This document shows positions 44,259-52,608 of a DNA stretch of 64,000 nucleotides, in pieces. Under the pieces are notes generated by a model. That model made no database searches. It saw only the letters and a program-made list of their open reading frames with translations, and had not been told where the DNA came from. Both the position numbers and the translations under genes were made by a program. The stretch's first letter is position 1. Each line of letters begins with the position of its first letter. The DNA lies in the NCBI GenBank assembly GCA_964291235.2, contig OZ219816.1, positions 1,728,001 to 1,792,000 on the forward strand. The letters are read 5' to 3'. The DNA comes from Vicinamibacteria bacterium (GTDB taxonomy: Bacteria; Acidobacteriota; Vicinamibacteria; Marinacidobacterales; Marinacidobacteraceae).

Positions 44259-45400
44259 GAGAAATTCGGGAGGGGCCGCTCCAGGCCGAAATGCCCCATG
44301 CGGAAATGGCGGTCCAGTGCCTCGAGGCCGAGCAGGAGATGGGCGCCGACATACAAGAACGCGTCCCCCGGAATGCGGCCGGTGGCGGCGTTCGAAACCA
44401 GGAACGGCGAAAACGCGCGAAGCCCGGTGTCGTCCTGCCGCCGGACGCTCATCTCGGTCAGGGTCCCCCAGATTTCGATCCCGGGACGCTTCTGCCGCGC
44501 CGGCTCGCCCGTACGGCCGTAGTACGCGAGCCGGAGACCGGGCATCCGCTCCCGGCAGAAGCCGAGGATCCGGGCGGCAACCTCCGGTGCGCCCTCGAGC
44601 GCGGTGGACGCGATCGCCGCGGCGTTCGAGGTCTGGACGATGTCGTTCGGCGAATACAGAAGCGTTCGCCGATCGTCAAAGAGGGTGGCCATCTCCGGCT
44701 GGAACACGTCATAGACGAGTCCGGCCGGGCTGCGCGCCGCCCGGAGGACCTCGTAGCTCCGCGCCGCCAGGTCCGCCAGATCCTGCCGACCGGTATCCCG
44801 GGCCACCTCCGCCAGGTAGTCCGGGGCGTAGTCCACGAGGAAGGAGTTCGTCGCGAAGTCCCGGCTCCCGAAGTTGAAGTAATTCCGGATGAGCAAGAGG
44901 CCCGCGGCCTCGCTCGCGTGCCGCGCATAGCCATCCAGGATCGCGAGCGCCAACTCCCGGTCCCGGGGGTCCCCGAACACCCGCGCTCCCTCCCAGAGCC
45001 CCTGGGAGACCCGGAGCGCTTCGGTGGTCCCGGAAGCGTCGGGGGCGTCTTGATCGTCCACCGGCGCCGGCGTCCGGCGCCACAGCACGAAACCCCGGGT
45101 GTACGGATCGTCGGGATCGTCCACGATGAGGCGGCGGACCGCGAAGTCCCGCAGCGCCCGGTACATCTCCCGGTCTTCGAGCCGGGCGGCGACCCGCAGG
45201 AGTTCTCCAACATCCACGGCGTAGGCGAAGCCGTTCGCCCGCGCGAAGTCGCCCGCCAGCACCCTGCCCCGCACCTCGCCGTGGAGCGCGATCAGCGCTT
45301 CCCGCGTCGCCGCCGCACCCGGCCAGGGGGCGCTCCGACAGGAGCCGCCCACGAGGATCGCGACGAGTCCCACCATCACCGGGACCCGGTTCCGCCGCAT
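44255..45400 (-). CDS. Hypothetical lipoprotein, possibly six-hairpin glycosidase-like
   Basis: Lipobox-like GGSC; 4-bp overlap with the next gene; function uncertain. Confidence 0.6.
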   Translation of the reverse strand: MRRNRVPVMVGLVAILVGGSCRSAPWPGAAATREALIALHGEVRGRVLAGDFARANGFAYAVDVGELLRVAARLEDREMYRALRDFAVRRLIVDDPDDPYTRGFVLWRRTPAPVDDQDAPDASGTTEALRVSQGLWEGARVFGDPRDRELALAILDGYARHASEAAGLLLIRNYFNFGSRDFATNSFLVDYAPDYLAEVARDTGRQDLADLAARSYEVLRAARSPAGLVYDVFQPEMATLFDDRRTLLYSPNDIVQTSNAAAIASTALEGAPEVAARILGFCRERMPGLRLAYYGRTGEPARQKRPGIEIWGTLTEMSVRRQDDTGLRAFSPFLVSNAATGRIPGDAFLYVGAHLLLGLEALDRHFRMGHFGLERPLPNFS

Positions 45401-45613
45401 CCGTCCGAGGATAGCCGGAAGGCGGACCGGCAGTCCGACTCCCAATCCGAGGAGCGCTGGCCTCCGGCCGGCATCGTTCCCCGCAGGGGAGCGAAACTCC
45501 GGTCGTCAATCTTCCTCACGTTCCCGCCACCGATCACGTCGGCGAAGGCACACGGGCGCTGCGCCGCCCCCGTTTGGGTGGGTGCTGTGCGGCGGATGCA
45601 ATTCGTGCGTCTC

Positions 45614-45654
45614 GCGGCCTCCGGCCGCGATGCCGGTCTGGAGACCGGCGCTCC
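45614..45654. repeat. REP-like double hairpin
   Basis: GCGGCCTCCGGCCGC followed by GCCGGTCTGGAGACCGGCGCTCC; second hairpin related to GCCGATCTGGAGATCGGCGTTCC in the 54-55 kb repeats. Confidence 0.6.
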
Positions 45655-45733
45655 TGGCCTCGCTCCCCGGTCCGCGAGCCAGCCCCTACAATGGGCAATT
45701 CCCCGGTTCTCCGTTTGGGAAGGAGGCTGTGAA

Positions 45734-48700
45734 GTGCGTACTTCTGCCCTTGTTCTGAGTCTTGTCGTTCTTTTGGGAGCCGCCGGTCCGGCGGTGGCGC
45801 AGCCGGAATCGCTGGCCGCGCTCTACGAGTTGGGCGGGGCCGTCTCCGACCCGAACGGCGACGGCGTCGCCGACCGGCTGAACGCCCGGGTCGTGCTGTC
45901 TGGCTCGCCCTCGGCAGCGGAGGTCGCGATCGCCGCTGATCTGGCTGCCCGGCTCGGATTCGAAACCATGGCCCTCAACCTTCCGATGCCCACCGACGCG
46001 GAAATGGAGATCGCCGTGGGTGACGAAGCGCTGTCCCGACTCGGGATGAGCGGGATGGGTGACCTCGCCGCCGGGTGGGGGGCCGTGGAGCTGCACACCG
46101 CCGGAGACTCGGTGATCGTCGCGGTCCGCGGCGGTGACGATGCCGGCCTCGCGGCCGCGGCCGCATGGCTCGCTTCGCGGGCGCCCCACGTCTTCCGCAC
46201 TGACGGCGAATCCCTCTCGGATGTCGAAGCGGCCGTGTTGAGCGCTGCCGGAGACGCGGCCATGGACGCCCACACGATACGGGTCGAGGTGGAGGCCGGC
46301 GCCCACGCGCTCGCCGCCGCTGAAGTGCGGGTGGGCGCGGCCGACGGCGCCGCCGCCGGCGCCATCGCTTCCGCGGTGGAATCCGCCGGGGACGAGCTCC
46401 GCTTCGACAGTCTGGCGACCCTCCGGGTAGTGGCCGCCCATTCCGGCGGGGAATCGGCCGCTTCGGTCAGCCACGACCCGCCCGCCCCGGATGCGGGCCC
46501 CGTCCCCGGGCGGCCGGGGTCCGGCTCCAAGAACGATCTGGGACTCGCCGTGCTCTACGAGCCGAGCGGGCTGCTCGGCGATTCCAACGGGGACCGCATC
46601 CCGGATCGGCTCGATTCGCGGCTGGCGGTGACCGCCGAGGATCCCGGCGGGACCGTCGCGCTCGCGGCGCGCCTGGGACTCGAGTCCTCGGGAATGGACT
46701 TCCCGGTGGCGACCGCGGCCGGCGACGTGGACGAACCGGGTGGGCAGCCGACCCTGGTGGTCGTCGGCACCGCCGGTGAGAATCCGCTGCTCGCGGATCT
46801 CGCGGTTCCCGATCTGGGGGCCGGCGAGGGCTTCGTCGGCGTGGTTCCGGAGGCGTTCGGCAAGAAGCACGCGCTGGCAATCACCGGCGGCGACCAGGCG
46901 GGACTCTCGCGGGCGCTCTACCAGACCGCGGTGGGCCTGCCCCACCTCGACGCCGCGAATCGCCGGAAGGACCATCCGACGGTGGACGGGGTTGAGTTCG
47001 CGGCCTGGAAGTTTCTCTCCCAGCGAAGCCCCGGGGGCCAGGCGGCGGCCGCGCTTTACAAGCTGGAACGGATCGCCGCCGAGGTCTCCCACCTGGGCAT
47101 CGGAAGCTCGAAGATCCTGGTGTCGGTGAAGGACCCGGCCCCGGGGCTCGACGACTTCGTCGCCGCGGCGGCGGAGCGGCTCGGACTCGGCGAAGCGAGC
47201 GTCGAACTGGACGACCGGAACGTGGACAACGCGGCGGTCATCCACGAAGAGGAGTTCGCGGTGCCGTCCGAGGTCGAGGAGTTCCGGGGGCTCGTGCAGG
47301 AGCGGTTGCTGCCGGCGGTCGGCCGGGGTGACCGGGTCCGGGTCATGGTCCACCTGAGCGAACCCGCCGCCGTGCGCCACTCGCTCCGGGATGAATTGGT
47401 GACCGACCTCCGGGGCCGCGGCGCCACGGTGTCGGACGGCGACGTGGTGGTGCTGTCGGCCTACCGGCAGGGCTACAGCTGGATCGAGGAAGTGGTGCTG
47501 CCGCGGCTGCTGGCGCTCCGCGAAGGCGGGACGCCGACGGCGCGTGTCCGGCTGCTCTTCCGGGAGCACCGCCCACCGGAGGATTGGCCCCAGCAGGCCA
47601 TGCACACCCCGCTGCGCTGGCAACACGCCATGTTCCCCGCCGACGAAATCATGGCCGAGGCGCTGTTGCTCGACCTGGGCGACGTGGGATACGAGCTGCG
47701 CGCCGAGCAGGACGCGCCCGCCTACCAGGTGGTGGCGGAGGACGCGAACGGAGAAGTTCTCCTCAACGAGACGTTCGAGCCGCGGCTGGTCTCCCGGCCC
47801 TTCATGGACCGGTATCCGGATTACGAGTGGATCCAGGTGACCACCGGCGGCATCACCGCGCAGGTGGACGGCGCAACGGTGGTGGACGAGCGGATCCGGA
47901 TGGACGCCGAGGCGTTTTGGGACCACTACCAGTCGGACACCCTGGCGAGGGTTTACGACTACATCATGGAACTCCACGAGGGGAAGCCGCGGGGGCCGGC
48001 GGACGCGCCCTACTTCGGCCAGTTGAAGGTCGTGCTGTCGCTTTCGGAGCCGGAGCGTCGGCTCGGAGTCGAACAGGAGATCGAGTCCACCCACGACGCC
48101 CTCCACGAGGACATCTATTTCGTCACCCACAGCTTCCTGCGGCACATCGGGCGCAACTCGCTGGGGACCGAACTCACCTACGGCGGACGGGTCATCCCCG
48201 AGATGCGCGGGAAGACGGACGGGACGCCGGGGACCGCGCACATCCTCTTCACCGGGTTCAAGACGAGTCGTCCGGCGATCGTCGTGGACTACACGACGAC
48301 GGACGGGACGATGGGAACCGTGCGGCGGAACATCCCCAAGGTAGAGGTGGGCCGGCCGCGCGCGATGACGGCGCGGGTGAGCGCCGGGAATTCCGGGCTG
48401 GATGCTCTTCGGCTGCGCGTCAAGGTGGACACCGACGCGGATGAGCGCGACTACTACGTGGAGCGGCACGGCGAGGACGCCGCCGACGAACGGATCATGT
48501 CCGCCGCGCAGACGACCCGGGTGGTGGAACTGCTCGGCGAACTGCGGGCGGCCGGTCTCTATTCCGACGAACTCGCGTTCGCCGGTCTCGGGGAGCTGGA
48601 AGTCGCCGCGTCCTGGACGTGGGACTACGAGGCGGACACCGAGCGGACGGTCACGCTGGCGGCGAACGGCGCGCCACCCCCCTTCCCCGACATCATGACC

Positions 48701-49876
48701 TTCCGGGGCGAGACCGGCAGCGACGACCAGCTCGTCCAGTGGGACTCCCCGATCTCGCCGCCGGAGGCCTACGGGATGCTGGCGCGGATGTCCGAGTTCC
48801 CCGAAGCCACGGTTTACAAGATCGGCGAGAGCTACCTGGGCCAGTCCACCTGGGCGATGGATCTGATGCCGCCTATGGAGGCAACGCACTGGTCGCAGCG
48901 GAAGGCGAGCCTGCTGAAGCCGACGATCGTCTATAGCGCCCGGCAGCACGCGAACGAGGTTTCCTCCACGTCGCACGTGCTGCGGCTCGCCGAGATGATC
49001 CTGACCGACGAAGAGCACGGGAAGAAGCTGGACACGGTGAACGTGATCGTCCATCCGATCCAGAATCCGGACGGCGCCCAGCTCGCCTGGGACATGCACC
49101 AGTACAACCCCGAGCACATCCTCCATGCGGGATATTGGGGGTCGCTCGGCATCGACTCCACGACCGACAGCGACGAACCGATGCCGATCTATCCGGAGGC
49201 CGAGGTGCGCCCGCGGATCTGGCGGATGTGGCTACCCGACATCTTCCTGAACCCGCACGGCTACCCCGCGCACCAGCTCGTGCAGCTCTTCAGCGAGTTC
49301 AGCGGCCTCGTCCGGGCCGGGCGCCGCACCGAGCGCAACTGGGGCTTCAACAAGGGCTGGTTCATGCCCGGCTTCGACGTGGTGGACGACCCCGAGTTCC
49401 CGCGCCACAAGGCGGCGGCGCTCAAAATCCGCGGCTACATCACGAACGCGATCCAGGCGACCGGACCGGTGGCGGCGATGAACCAGCGCAACTACGACCG
49501 CTACCGCCGCTACGGGATGCAATTCGAACCCGAGGTCTTCCGGATGGACCTCCACAACGGAGTCAACATCGGGATGCCCATCAAGGGCCGCCTCGCGAGC
49601 GCCGCCGGACGTGGCGGCCGCGGCTACGACCCCAAGATCACCATCTGGGCGGCGGGCACCGAGGCCCCGGACGAGCCGGCCCGCGGCGACTGGATGAAGA
49701 TCGTGGCGTCAGCGGGACTCGCCTGGGACACCGCGGTCCTGCAGTACCTGCTGGACGGAGACCACAAGGTCAACCGGAACACCAGCGAGTTCTTCGGCGG
49801 CGTCTCGATCCGGCTGGATCGGCCGCGCCCGCCGGAGGACCCGGAGGAGGAAGAAGAAACCGAAGAAGGTCAGTAG
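45734..49876 (+). CDS. Large secreted M14 zinc carboxypeptidase
   Basis: GTG after AAGGAGG, signal peptide; RQHANE, NPDG, NPHG motifs in the C-terminal domain. Confidence 0.88.
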   Translation: MRTSALVLSLVVLLGAAGPAVAQPESLAALYELGGAVSDPNGDGVADRLNARVVLSGSPSAAEVAIAADLAARLGFETMALNLPMPTDAEMEIAVGDEALSRLGMSGMGDLAAGWGAVELHTAGDSVIVAVRGGDDAGLAAAAAWLASRAPHVFRTDGESLSDVEAAVLSAAGDAAMDAHTIRVEVEAGAHALAAAEVRVGAADGAAAGAIASAVESAGDELRFDSLATLRVVAAHSGGESAASVSHDPPAPDAGPVPGRPGSGSKNDLGLAVLYEPSGLLGDSNGDRIPDRLDSRLAVTAEDPGGTVALAARLGLESSGMDFPVATAAGDVDEPGGQPTLVVVGTAGENPLLADLAVPDLGAGEGFVGVVPEAFGKKHALAITGGDQAGLSRALYQTAVGLPHLDAANRRKDHPTVDGVEFAAWKFLSQRSPGGQAAAALYKLERIAAEVSHLGIGSSKILVSVKDPAPGLDDFVAAAAERLGLGEASVELDDRNVDNAAVIHEEEFAVPSEVEEFRGLVQERLLPAVGRGDRVRVMVHLSEPAAVRHSLRDELVTDLRGRGATVSDGDVVVLSAYRQGYSWIEEVVLPRLLALREGGTPTARVRLLFREHRPPEDWPQQAMHTPLRWQHAMFPADEIMAEALLLDLGDVGYELRAEQDAPAYQVVAEDANGEVLLNETFEPRLVSRPFMDRYPDYEWIQVTTGGITAQVDGATVVDERIRMDAEAFWDHYQSDTLARVYDYIMELHEGKPRGPADAPYFGQLKVVLSLSEPERRLGVEQEIESTHDALHEDIYFVTHSFLRHIGRNSLGTELTYGGRVIPEMRGKTDGTPGTAHILFTGFKTSRPAIVVDYTTTDGTMGTVRRNIPKVEVGRPRAMTARVSAGNSGLDALRLRVKVDTDADERDYYVERHGEDAADERIMSAAQTTRVVELLGELRAAGLYSDELAFAGLGELEVAASWTWDYEADTERTVTLAANGAPPPFPDIMTFRGETGSDDQLVQWDSPISPPEAYGMLARMSEFPEATVYKIGESYLGQSTWAMDLMPPMEATHWSQRKASLLKPTIVYSARQHANEVSSTSHVLRLAEMILTDEEHGKKLDTVNVIVHPIQNPDGAQLAWDMHQYNPEHILHAGYWGSLGIDSTTDSDEPMPIYPEAEVRPRIWRMWLPDIFLNPHGYPAHQLVQLFSEFSGLVRAGRRTERNWGFNKGWFMPGFDVVDDPEFPRHKAAALKIRGYITNAIQATGPVAAMNQRNYDRYRRYGMQFEPEVFRMDLHNGVNIGMPIKGRLASAAGRGGRGYDPKITIWAAGTEAPDEPARGDWMKIVASAGLAWDTAVLQYLLDGDHKVNRNTSEFFGGVSIRLDRPRPPEDPEEEEETEEGQ

Positions 49877-49884
49877 CCTGACCC

Positions 49885-49912
49885 GGCTTCGCCCGCCCAC
49901 GCGGGCGAAGCC
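49885..49912 (+). terminator. Perfect 12-bp hairpin after the M14 gene
   Basis: GGCTTCGCCCGC-CCAC-GCGGGCGAAGCC; no U tract. Confidence 0.55.
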
Positions 49913-49934
49913 AAGAGCTGCTGCGGGACCGGCT

Positions 49935-49966
49935 GGCACAGCCCGCCGCAGCCGGGCGGCGGGACG
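49935..49966 (-). repeat. Inverted copy of the 54-55.7 kb repeat core
   Basis: Reverse complement CGTCCCGCCGCCCGGCTGCGGCGGGCTGTGCC matches 55694-55725 with one mismatch. Confidence 0.85.
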
Positions 49967-50025
49967 TATCGCCGCTAGCGCGGAAGCGCGGGCGACCGCA
50001 AGGGAGCCCCCTATAGGATCGGCGA

Positions 50026-50240
50026 CGTCCTGCGGGAGCTGAGATTCAGCTGCCGTTGTATCAACTCAGGTTGGCCAATCCGCCGGGAGTACTAACTGAG
50101 CCCCGGTGCTGCGAGCACCTACGGTGGACACGTACCCCGACGGATGGCCGTGATGGACGACCAGTGGAGAGTCGGTTCCAATCGAGAACCAGTATAGGGG
50201 CTGGACAGCATCGCGGCGCGGCGGACCTCCGACGGAGCGC
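50026..50240 (+). ncRNA. IS110 bridge RNA (ends approximate)
   Basis: Target loop guides GAGCCCC (50098-104) and CGGTGG (50122-127); donor loop guides TGGAGAGTC (50165-173) and TATAGG (50193-198); each pair flanks an inner hairpin within an outer stem. Confidence 0.85.
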
Positions 50241-50260
50241 AAGCTCGAAGGAAGACAGCG

Positions 50261-51523
50261 ATGAAGCAGAAGCTGAGCTGGTTCGTGGGCATCGACTGGG
50301 GCGAGCAGAGCCACCAGGTGTGCCTGTGCGACAGGCGCGGGAAGGTGCGCGGGGAGCGCGCCTTCGCGCACAAGGGATCGGGGCTGGCGGCCCTGGTGAA
50401 GTGGCTTAGGAAGCAGACGGGTGTGCCGCCGGCGCGGGTGGCGGTCGCGATCGAGCGGCCGGATGGGGCGGTGGTGGCGACGCTGCTGGAGGCGGGGTTT
50501 GCGGTCTATGCGGTGAACCCGCGGCAGACGAGCCACCTGCGGAAGTTCATCTCCCACCCGGGGCACAAGAACGACCGGCGGGACGCCCGGATGTTGGCCA
50601 CCACGCTGCAGGCGAGCCTGGCGGGGTTCCGGCTGCTGGTGCCGCTACCGGGGTTGGTGCTGCGGCTGCGGGAGCGGACCCGGACGGCGGACCGTCTGCT
50701 CCAGGAGCAGGTCCGGCAGTGCCTGCGGATCCGGAGTGCGCTGGTGGACTACTTCCCGCAACTGCTGGAGGTAGCCGGCGAGGCGAAGAACCTGGGGACT
50801 CCGTTCTTCCGGGAGTTGTGGGCTCGGGCTTCTACGCCGGCGAAAGCGCGGAAGGTGTGGTTGTCCACGTTGGAGAAGCTGGTTCGGCGGTATGGAGTGA
50901 CCCGGATCAGCGCCGCGCGGATCCAGGCGTTGTTCCGGGAGCCGGCGTTGGTGATGGCGCCGGGGGCGACCGAGGCGTCGGTGGAGACGATCCGCACGGC
51001 GCTCGCGCAGTTGGAGGTCGTGCGAGCGGAACTCGTCCGGGCGGAGGGCCAGATGACCCAGCTGCTGGACGAGTTCTCGGAGACGGCGGAGGCCGGGGGT
51101 GGTTCGGATGCCACGGGCCTGGATCTGGTGAGCGCGTTGCGCTCACGCCCGGGCGCGGGGGACAAGGCGCTGGCCCGGTTGTTCGCCTGGGGCTTCGAAG
51201 CGCTCTCGGAGGGGAACTACCGCCGTCTGCGCGCCTACTGTGGAGTAGCCCCGATCGAGGACCAGTCCGGCAAGTCCGCACAGCTCCGGCAACGGCGCGC
51301 CGTTCCCAGTTCGCTGCAACACGCCACCTACATCCTGGCGCGGGGGGTCGTCCGCTGGGACGAGAAGGTGGCGGCCTACAACCGGAAGTTGAAGGCGGAA
51401 GGGAAGCACACGGCCCGGCGCCACCGGAGCATCGCGGATCAACAACTCCGGGTGCTGTGCGCGATGGCCCGGAACCGAACCCTCTTTGATCCCAACTTCT
51501 CCCAGAAGCGGAGGGCCGCCTAA
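50261..51523 (+). CDS. IS110 DEDD recombinase/transposase
   Basis: VGIDWG, AIE, KNDRRDA, GVAP...QSGK. Confidence 0.95.
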   Translation: MKQKLSWFVGIDWGEQSHQVCLCDRRGKVRGERAFAHKGSGLAALVKWLRKQTGVPPARVAVAIERPDGAVVATLLEAGFAVYAVNPRQTSHLRKFISHPGHKNDRRDARMLATTLQASLAGFRLLVPLPGLVLRLRERTRTADRLLQEQVRQCLRIRSALVDYFPQLLEVAGEAKNLGTPFFRELWARASTPAKARKVWLSTLEKLVRRYGVTRISAARIQALFREPALVMAPGATEASVETIRTALAQLEVVRAELVRAEGQMTQLLDEFSETAEAGGGSDATGLDLVSALRSRPGAGDKALARLFAWGFEALSEGNYRRLRAYCGVAPIEDQSGKSAQLRQRRAVPSSLQHATYILARGVVRWDEKVAAYNRKLKAEGKHTARRHRSIADQQLRVLCAMARNRTLFDPNFSQKRRAA

Positions 51524-51675
51524 CGCTCTTGCGTTCTCGTGGAAAGTCCACCGGGAGAACTGGGCCGGACTCCAGGCCTGCACAGCCCCCGCCCGAGGCG
51601 TGCGACGGCGCTATTTCCTGGGCCCTGAGCAACGATGGATGCAACATCGCGATGGGGCCGGGGCCGACGTCCAGA

Positions 51676-52608
51676 CTATCCCCCGAGATACATGTTGTCG
51701 TTGTGCCAACGGAGGAAATCCTCCCCTGGTCGATACTTGGGATCGTCAGGAACTGCGATGCCTCGGCCGTGGTGCGGGTAGTAACTGCGACCGTTCTCGT
51801 AGTCGTCACGCAGTCGGTCACTTACCTCAAGTCTTAGCTCAGGCGTAACGGTCAGATACCCCTTGTCGAATAGGCGGTGGAGGTCCGCGCGCAACAGCAG
51901 TCCGTTCGAGATCTCGTGCGGGCCGGCATCAGCATACGGCCTGATGTGCGCCGCTTCGAGGGCAGGCAGGGAGTGCTCTTCGGTGACAGCACAGGCACCG
52001 CCGTACGCGTCCGCGACCGCGATACGGAAGGTCCCCTGACCCAGCCGCGGCGTCACAAGCTGCCCCTTGCCATAGCGCACGAGAGCCTCGCCGGAAGCTT
52101 CCGCCGGCCAATATCCCATGTCACCGAGTTCCGTGACATGTCCCATGCACGCCATCCAGATGCGCCGTCCCTCGTCCCGCGAAAGGTCGTACCGCTTGCT
52201 CGTCAGGTTGTTGGCAGACCAGTCCGCAGGCTGCGGGATCCAGAACTCGCGCGGAAAGAAGACTGCATTGCTCAGCACGATGCAGCCGATCCCGCCGGTG
52301 TCGCTGGAACTCCTTCGGGCTCGGATTTTCTGCAACCGGGCCTTCATGGCTCCGTAGGAAGGCGCTCCGTTCCCTTCCCCGAAGCACTCCCACGCCAGCC
52401 ACTCCGGAAGTGGCACGTATCGGTTGACTTGGCCGAAACCGCACACCGCGTTGTGCGGGTGCTTGAGCTTGAAGAAAAAGGGAGTGCCCGCTGCGCCCCG
52501 AAACCCGGCCCGCGCGGAAGGACGCCAGAAGTTGACCTCGCTCCAGAAGCCCCGCCGCGACAGATGCTCATACCAGCCGTCGTCGGTAACCGCGACATAT
52601 CCCTGCAT
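51676..52608 (-). CDS. HNH endonuclease (putative restriction/defence)
   Basis: RLGQGTFR, CAVT, LEAAHIRPY, NGLLLRADLHRLFD. Confidence 0.9.
   Translation of the reverse strand: MQGYVAVTDDGWYEHLSRRGFWSEVNFWRPSARAGFRGAAGTPFFFKLKHPHNAVCGFGQVNRYVPLPEWLAWECFGEGNGAPSYGAMKARLQKIRARRSSSDTGGIGCIVLSNAVFFPREFWIPQPADWSANNLTSKRYDLSRDEGRRIWMACMGHVTELGDMGYWPAEASGEALVRYGKGQLVTPRLGQGTFRIAVADAYGGACAVTEEHSLPALEAAHIRPYADAGPHEISNGLLLRADLHRLFDKGYLTVTPELRLEVSDRLRDDYENGRSYYPHHGRGIAVPDDPKYRPGEDFLRWHNDNMYLGG

Follow-up and report, generated by a model that had tools for sequence, protein, structure and literature searches.

Can an insertion sequence be read, together with its sister copies and the unoccupied targets in the same genome, closely enough to tell how it selects its landing sites? 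We asked this of a putative IS110-family element in a 64,000-nt stretch of a Vicinamibacteria bacterium genome (GenBank assembly GCA_964291235.2, contig OZ219816.1, positions 1,728,001 to 1,792,000 of the forward strand). This stretch is hereafter called the window, and its numbering is used unless a contig is named. An initial annotation had placed at 50004–51560 an intact, potentially programmable IS110 recombinase accompanied by a bridge RNA. In our analysis, 50010–51549 very likely represents a complete insertion sequence of the IS110 group whose movement relies on conservative recombination guided by a bridge RNA, in the manner of IS621. This reading is carried by direct observations: the anatomy of the locus, its ends and core, the complementarity of its guides, the covariation of helices and of guides with their targets, the near-identity of multiple copies, and the catalytic residues of the encoded protein.

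Extent of the element and its recombinase

The insertion sequence occupies 50010–51547 (1,538 bp) and is followed by a second CC at 51548–51549. Its parts and the adjoining host repeat, which resembles repetitive extragenic palindromic (REP) sequences, are as follows:

50004–50009, + strand: left target half GAGCCC, a piece of the REP-like host repeat, identical in 5/5 copies and continuous with ACCG at 21 unoccupied sites
50010–50011, + strand: left copy of the core dinucleotide CC; empty sites read GAGCCC-CC-ACCG, and occupied sites have CC at both junctions
50012–50017, + strand: TATAGG directly after the left core, read from the sequence
50012–50260, + strand: left non-coding end encoding the bridge RNA, 249 nt
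50261–51523, + strand: IS110-family recombinase gene, 420 aa, assigned from open reading frame (ORF), domains and catalytic residues
51540–51547, + strand: left donor, the final 8 nt of the right end, TGGAAAGT
51548–51549, + strand: right copy of the core dinucleotide CC, from the comparison of occupied with empty sites
51550–51590, + strand: right target half (ACCG...) and the remaining REP-like repeat including a GC-rich hairpin, common to all five insertion sites and to many unoccupied repeats

A DNA search of the element's own genome returned 51 matches, comprising five full-length copies (the window's included) and 46 short flank matches. The full copies are 98–100% identical at the DNA level and all carry open 420-aa frames, which bears out the description of the element as intact. 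Alignment of the five with 120 nt of flanking DNA revealed 18 differing columns inside the element, separating the copies into two subgroups. Different ends in other copies had been named as an outcome that would refute the initial reading; the four other copies have the same ends as the window's.

All copies being inserted in one REP-like repeat, their similarity extends into the flanks, over ~12 nt to the left and >40 nt to the right. Divergence alone therefore cannot define the ends, and the unoccupied repeat was used instead. The 12-mer formed by left flank, CC and right flank occurs 21 times without an insertion, as compared with 3.7 occurrences expected from base composition. Since occupied sites possess CC at both junctions and a T precedes the right CC (itself directly followed by ACCGGG at 51550–51555), the shared core is exactly CC and at most 2 nt long. 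The 2-nt CC core of the initial annotation is hence confirmed by five occupied versus 21 empty sites.

The 25 longest of 39 inverted pairs include no terminal inverted repeat. The lack of long terminal inverted repeats, along with a short core common to both junctions and the empty site, conforms to the IS110 family. Within it, the long RNA-encoding left end and the short right end of 24 nt (51524–51547) assign the element to the IS110 group rather than the IS1111 group.

The protein encoded at 50261–51523 matches PF01548 (DEDD_Tnp_IS110) at residues 9–166 (E 4.6e-28) and PF02371 (Transposase_20) at residues 292–373 (E 1.4e-08). Among solved structures, the only relatives found by sequence were the recombinases of ISCro4 (E 2.6e-07) and IS621 (E 3.3e-06), both distant but significant. 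Using the published catalytic residue names of IS621 (PMC11208158), we aligned D12, D105 and D108 with its first, third and fourth acidic residues and S336-G337 with its Ser-Gly. E65, D105, D108, S336 and G337 are invariant across 13 related proteins, and G[IV]D is found in 12 of the 13, namely those with a correctly called start. The equivalence of E65 to the second acidic residue rests on this conservation, because HMMER puts the IS621 glutamate two residues away. The protein thus displays a RuvC-like DEDD domain with four acidic residues and a Tnp domain with Ser-Gly, in agreement with the 420-aa recombinase originally called. It is ~90 aa longer than the ~326-aa IS621 protein, the extra length lying between the two Pfam domains (residues 167–291).

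Bridge RNA and covariation of its guides

A single-sequence fold of 50020–50262 produced a 5′ hairpin and two units of stem, internal loop and central hairpin (50085–50138 and 50161–50204). In the first unit, GGGAGTAC (50085–50092) pairs with GTACCCC (50132–50138) around an inner hairpin at 50105–50119; in the second, CCAG (50161–50164) pairs with CTGG (50201–50204) around an inner hairpin at 50174–50190. The following RNA features were assigned:

50037–50051, + strand: 5′ hairpin of the RNA (single-sequence fold; compensatory change in copies D and E)
50085–50138, + strand: target-binding loop, consisting of stem, left guide, hairpin, right guide, handshake and stem (helix 1 is 94.5% paired, with 5 compensatory pairs)
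50098–50104, + strand: left target guide GAGCCCC, reading in the sense of the left target and the first core C
50122–50129, + strand: right target guide CGGTGG (50122–50127) and handshake AC (50128–50129), together an 8-mer exactly reverse-complementary to the right insertion junction
50161–50204, + strand: donor-binding loop, with the same order of stem, left guide, hairpin, right guide, handshake and stem (fold; helices 4 and 5)
50165–50173, + strand: left donor guide TGGAGAGTC, matching the right end (51540–51548) with one G·T wobble
50193–50200, + strand: right donor guide TATAGG (50193–50198) and handshake GG (50199–50200), together an 8-mer that is the reverse complement of the left insertion junction

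All strings quoted in the initial annotation (flanks, hexamers, stems, guides, hairpins and the one wobble) were found at their places when the sequence was read. Following published definitions of layout and guide polarity (PMC11208160, PMC11208158), the left guides read like the top strand and would hybridise to the bottom one; the right guides, reverse-complementary to the top strand, would hybridise to that strand. The first loop is thereby complementary to the target's two strands and the second to both strands of the joined ends, with the polarity described for IS621. In copies D and E, T50040C coincides with A50048G and turns a U-A pair of the 5′ hairpin into C-G, a double change that is also present in contigs from public sequencing runs.

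The two handshake dinucleotides were missed initially. In IS621, handshake guides pair with non-cognate DNA after the first strand exchange (PMC11208158). In line with this, AC (positions 6–7) is complementary to the donor GT and not to the target CC, and GG is complementary to the target CC, although its first G could wobble (G·T) with the cognate donor T.

Could the leader be a mere translational or transcriptional leader of the transposase gene, with the protein picking the target and the guide matches arising by coincidence or as a by-product of the repeat? The fold is indeed little more stable than those of shuffled sequences (z −1.73; 13/200 shuffles fold as well), so that its energy is unremarkable, and the RNA is GC-rich, which makes short matches common (non-cognate matches of 5–6 nt are usual when whole leaders are compared). 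However, in 20,000 dinucleotide-preserving shuffles of 50020–50260, the four guide strings occurred singly in 737, 2,500, 336 and 382 cases and all together in none. The four guide matches first listed are, accordingly, real. Two further observations, detailed below, also contradict a plain leader: guides change with flanks across seven target classes, the cognate arrangement alone among 5,040 permutations reaching the observed score, and the matches always fall in unpaired loop segments of a covarying structure. We therefore consider this explanation very improbable, and the leader is treated as a bridge RNA in what follows.

Relatives were collected from two sources. A scan of species-representative genomes identified an 82%-identical element present in six copies in one Vicinamibacteria metagenome-assembled genome (MAG), a 63%-identical element in a Candidatus Marinacidobacterium MAG, and three partial matches (62–67% identity over ~250–290 of 420 residues) in a second Vicinamibacteria MAG. 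Searching 401 genomes of the phylum yielded matches at E up to 1e-40 in nine of them (the window's own included), with 30–40% protein identity. Both ends could be located for 11 distinct elements from 10 Acidobacteriota genomes, all of which have CC at both ends. Their right ends take the form TTG, 16 nt, CC, with TGGRRAGT before the core (25/25 located right ends; three loci gave none), and the left ends of related elements start with T[AG]TA after the core. Loci L031 and L039 (fetched DNA stopping short of the right end), L037 (right-end motif not found), and L035 and L042 (left-end motif unrecognisable) were left out of the guide tables.

We aligned the RNA cores of the 11 elements to a manual structure of 34 pairs. 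We had discarded an automatic consensus fold because the inner donor-loop stem was absent from it and the core-binding GG was matched to the hairpin CC. Under the manual structure, 89% of cells are paired, versus 32–46% with the 3′ partners slid by 1–3 columns; 11 pairs show changes on both sides, versus 1–4 when slid, and the covariation score was reached by none of 500 column shuffles. The inner donor-loop stem is the weakest helix (75% paired). The fold and covariation check proposed at the outset thus reproduced both loops with covarying helices, and fold, polarity and covariation in the 11 elements uphold the IS621-type layout of a 5′ hairpin plus two internal-loop stem-loops.

Matrices of the longest match over whole leaders proved too noisy in this GC-rich RNA (non-cognate means 5.3–5.9 nt) and were therefore replaced by loop-restricted matches. 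Across the 11 elements, these revealed exact cognate matches of 7–9 nt in the same four loop segments; the only deviations concern L029, in its right target guide (5 nt), and the window element, in its left donor guide (4 nt exact, 9 nt with wobble). For a permutation test, left and right target-guide matches were summed for one representative of each of the seven target classes among the 11 elements. The cognate sum was 102, whereas the 5,040 permutations averaged 57 and none but the cognate arrangement attained 102. As an example within one target family, shared by the window element, L018 (the 82%-identical relative) and L024 (the 63%-identical one), L024 is changed at two left-target positions and its guide is changed alike. 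Because the target contains a run of five C, the register of the guides was checked against relatives: L030 and L034 agree with the register used, and in L028 and L029 the guides seem to be offset by one base. Complementarity between the donor-loop handshake and the target is seen, at least in part, in seven of the 11 elements (both bases in four, only the core-adjacent base in three).

Some relatives differ in overall build. Between the stop codon and the conserved right end, the window element has 24 bases, as opposed to ~210 extra non-coding bases in the 82%-identical relative (L018–L023, 2443–2667) and ~340 in the 63%-identical one (L024, 2455–2790). In L031/L039 (genome G332), downstream of the recombinase gene, identity between copies persists for >1.4 kb, as far as the fetched sequence reaches; in L032/L040/L047 (genome G325), it runs from ~500 bp to >1.5 kb downstream of the gene, past the recognisable right end. 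These elements are either larger, with cargo, or nested in a bigger repeat. Expanded IS110 elements have reportedly been described in a 2026 preprint (10.64898/2026.08.14.744561). The left ends of L030 and L033 measure 414 and 398 nt; ~190 additional bases separate the left terminus from the bridge-RNA core, which thus starts far from the junction promoter.

Predicted promoter, mobility and landing sites

Two hexamers at opposite ends of the element would form a promoter upon circularisation:

50014–50019, + strand: −10-like hexamer TAGGAT of the predicted circle-junction promoter; TA...T is kept in all 28 listed left ends
51529–51534, + strand: −35-like hexamer TTGCGT in the right end; TTG lies at the same distance from the core in 25/25 located related right ends

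Joining right and left ends at CC separates the hexamers by a 17-nt spacer (13 nt of right end, CC and TA). This arrangement is present as initially annotated, yet calling the promoter readable from the sequence was an overstatement, as the hexamers match the sigma-70 consensus at 7/12 positions (TTGCGT at 3/6 of the −35 and TAGGAT at 4/6 of the −10 element) and stay below the promoter-scan threshold. The predicted promoter is weak by consensus but credible, mainly because the positions of TTG and TA...T are conserved in relatives, which is the better argument for it. A promoter scan of the integrated locus found no promoter-like site, and TAGGAT has no −35 element upstream when integrated. 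The absence of a promoter-like site from the integrated locus fits expression mainly from the circle; for comparison, IS621 RNA is weakly expressed from genomic copies according to a 2026 paper (PMC13626964).

The circle, promoter activity, RNA expression, strand-exchange chemistry and programmability are ascribed to the element by analogy with published work on IS621, which suggests the following course. The element would excise as a circle, and joining of its right and left ends at CC would put a TTG-type −35 element 17 nt upstream of a TA...T-type −10 element, from which an RNA of ~190 nt could be transcribed from the left end. Its first internal loop would read the target GAGCCC-CC-ACCG, with the left guide base-pairing to the bottom strand and the right guide to the top one, and its second internal loop would read the element's joined ends, TGGAAAGT-CC-TATA. 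The DEDD/Ser recombinase would then swap strands at the CC core, with AC and GG behind the right guides presumably pairing with the incoming strands after the first exchange. As the target lies in a REP-like repeat, many landing sites would be available in the genome.

Besides the poor consensus match of the hexamers, several observations weigh against this reading. At one position, the left donor guide reads G and the right end A, resulting in a G·T wobble with the bottom strand. The right guides cover CC, whereas both left guides, for target and donor, read C followed by G; carrying G opposite the second core position, they pair with one core base, unlike those of IS621. Not all four guides therefore pair with both core bases, a point on which the initial guide list needs amending, since its left guides reach the first core C only; L018 and L024 show the same pattern. 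An almost invariant T, read by the protein backbone, has been described as the second core base of IS621 and close relatives (PMC11208158); here that base is C, as in all 11 related elements. In one copy, located at 2.04 Mb of contig 2, position four of the right target half is A rather than G. Finally, a search of 49800–51800 against Rfam 15 at E up to 1 returned no bridge-RNA or other relevant family.

Some of these points might also signify a genuine bridge-RNA element that is by now immobile in this genome, a recent burst having stopped owing to, for instance, a weak junction promoter or an imperfect left donor guide. At the wobble position, L018 has A and L024 has G in both guide and end, and the left donor guides of these two relatives match their own right ends exactly over 8 nt; the window element alone of the three combines G in the guide with A in the end. 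Together with the 7/12 consensus match, this speaks for immobility. Conversely, the five copies differ at only 18 aligned columns with all frames open, G·T is a tolerated wobble, the TTG and TA...T arrangement is kept in all relatives, and 21 perfect targets are left unoccupied. On balance, we regard loss of mobility as unlikely.

Inspection of the listed perfect 12-mer targets (26 on contigs C1 and C2; five occupied, 21 empty) distinguished three contexts. Fourteen of the 26 consist of the REP-type repeat followed by a GC hairpin, and all five insertions are here; 11 lie at the centre of a different repeat ending in ...CACAGGCTGTTAA, and one is unique. The hypergeometric chance of finding 5/5 insertions in the hairpin-bearing subtype is ~0.03, which faintly suggests that more than the 12 bases may be required, in line with the report on ISPpu10.

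Outside the window, tandem arrays of an 87-bp REP-like unit and a 137-bp version of it are located at C1:44801–45300 and C2:1720151–1720800. The 87-bp unit is without the ~20-nt motif that contains the insertion target, and the longer version has this motif between GGGA and GCCGG. As a 19-mer, the motif has 75 exact copies, and it also flanks related elements in the other two MAGs. Absent from the shorter unit and inserted in the longer one, it therefore behaves like a small separate module in several repeat contexts. Another GC-rich palindromic hairpin (49885–49912) lies just downstream of a 1,861-aa ORF (44291–49876). It gave the only hits of the Rfam search, two CRISPR-DR28 matches of 24.3 and 21.9 bits, which fall below the gathering score of 35 and which we took as chance; the structure is probably a terminator-like or REP hairpin rather than a CRISPR repeat.

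Logan contigs of four public runs, examined over 49700–51900, contained no joints, hence neither circle junction nor empty allele; contigs break at the element ends. In the same runs (window positions 49996–51623), word depth was 196–376 for element contigs versus 12–32 for the unique flanks. The resulting ratio of ~9–12 compares with five assembled copies, but contig depth does not equal copy number and other strains or organisms may contribute. A search of public runs for the sequence listed no RNA run.

Significance and comparison with known systems

The element belongs to the known bridge-RNA class of IS110 elements. The only points that a specialist might pursue are its CC core and the confinement of all five insertions to the hairpin subtype, a possible preference, both mildly unusual, and also the pairing of its left guides with a single core base. 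As genome biology the finding is unremarkable, accounting for five insertions in a REP-like repeat and predicting 21 more landing sites. Its wider relevance lies in the fact that bridge recombinases are under development as programmable tools for DNA insertion, inversion and excision. Here, the core, the four guides and both handshake guides can be read from the genome, and the guides of relatives covary with their targets, making this a clean natural example. Because of its distant phylum, larger protein and CC core, the element is a reasonable candidate to widen the range of usable cores.

Going further, one might envisage a natural Acidobacteriota clade of CC-core-specific bridge recombinases, in which left guides read the first core base only, the protein enforces the second C, and insertion may be gated by a hairpin. 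We put this forward tentatively and deem it rather less probable than its failure. If true, a CC-specific clade would extend the core repertoire beyond the CT and GT cores of the characterised tools IS621 and IS622 (10.1101/2025.05.14.653916), and hairpin gating would represent a second natural example of structure-gated targeting. A literature text search for "IS110" with "CC core" gave no match; its coverage did not extend to the supplementary tables of PMC11208160, with their thousands of IS110 targets and donors, where CC cores or this clade may already appear.

The closest functional model is IS621 of Escherichia coli (PMC11208160, PMC11208158). Both elements have a two-domain DEDD/Ser recombinase, a 2-nt core and insertions in REP-type repeats, and both carry in a long left end a bridge RNA composed of a 5′ hairpin, a target-binding loop and a donor-binding loop. 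In both, the bottom strand is addressed by the left guides and the top strand by the right guides, the latter being followed on their 3′ side by handshake dinucleotides; a promoter split across the circle junction, as in IS621, is predicted for the window element. They differ in core (CT in IS621 versus CC), in host phylum (here Acidobacteriota) and in sequence, the E value of 3.3e-06 reflecting weak similarity. As described for IS621, its guides all include both core bases, in contrast to the left guides of the window element, which pair with one; the right target guide of the latter covers the core and 4 nt.

ISCro4 (IS622) from Citrobacter rodentium (10.1101/2025.05.14.653916; PDB 9t56) is the best match among solved structures and shares the bridge-RNA architecture with handshake guides. 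It differs from the window element, known so far from sequence, in its CT core, in its membership of the enterobacterial IS621 clade and in its experimentally demonstrated activity in human cells.

A parallel to the target preference is offered by ISPpu10 of Pseudomonas putida (10.64898/2026.03.19.712850), whose insertions are all in one conserved intergenic repeat with a GC-rich stem-loop by the RNA-matched site. The ISPpu10 stem-loop is a 5′ extension that was found experimentally to gate insertion, whereas the hairpin in our case is 3′ of the site, and the evidence for gating consists of the 5/5 insertions in a hairpin subtype making up 14/26 perfect sites.

Elements of the IS1111 group, for which seekRNAs have been described, are members of the same IS110 family and likewise combine DEDD recombinases with an RNA guide. 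They carry this RNA in a long right end and possess sub-terminal inverted repeats (PMC11208160), unlike the window element with its 249-nt left and 24-nt right ends.

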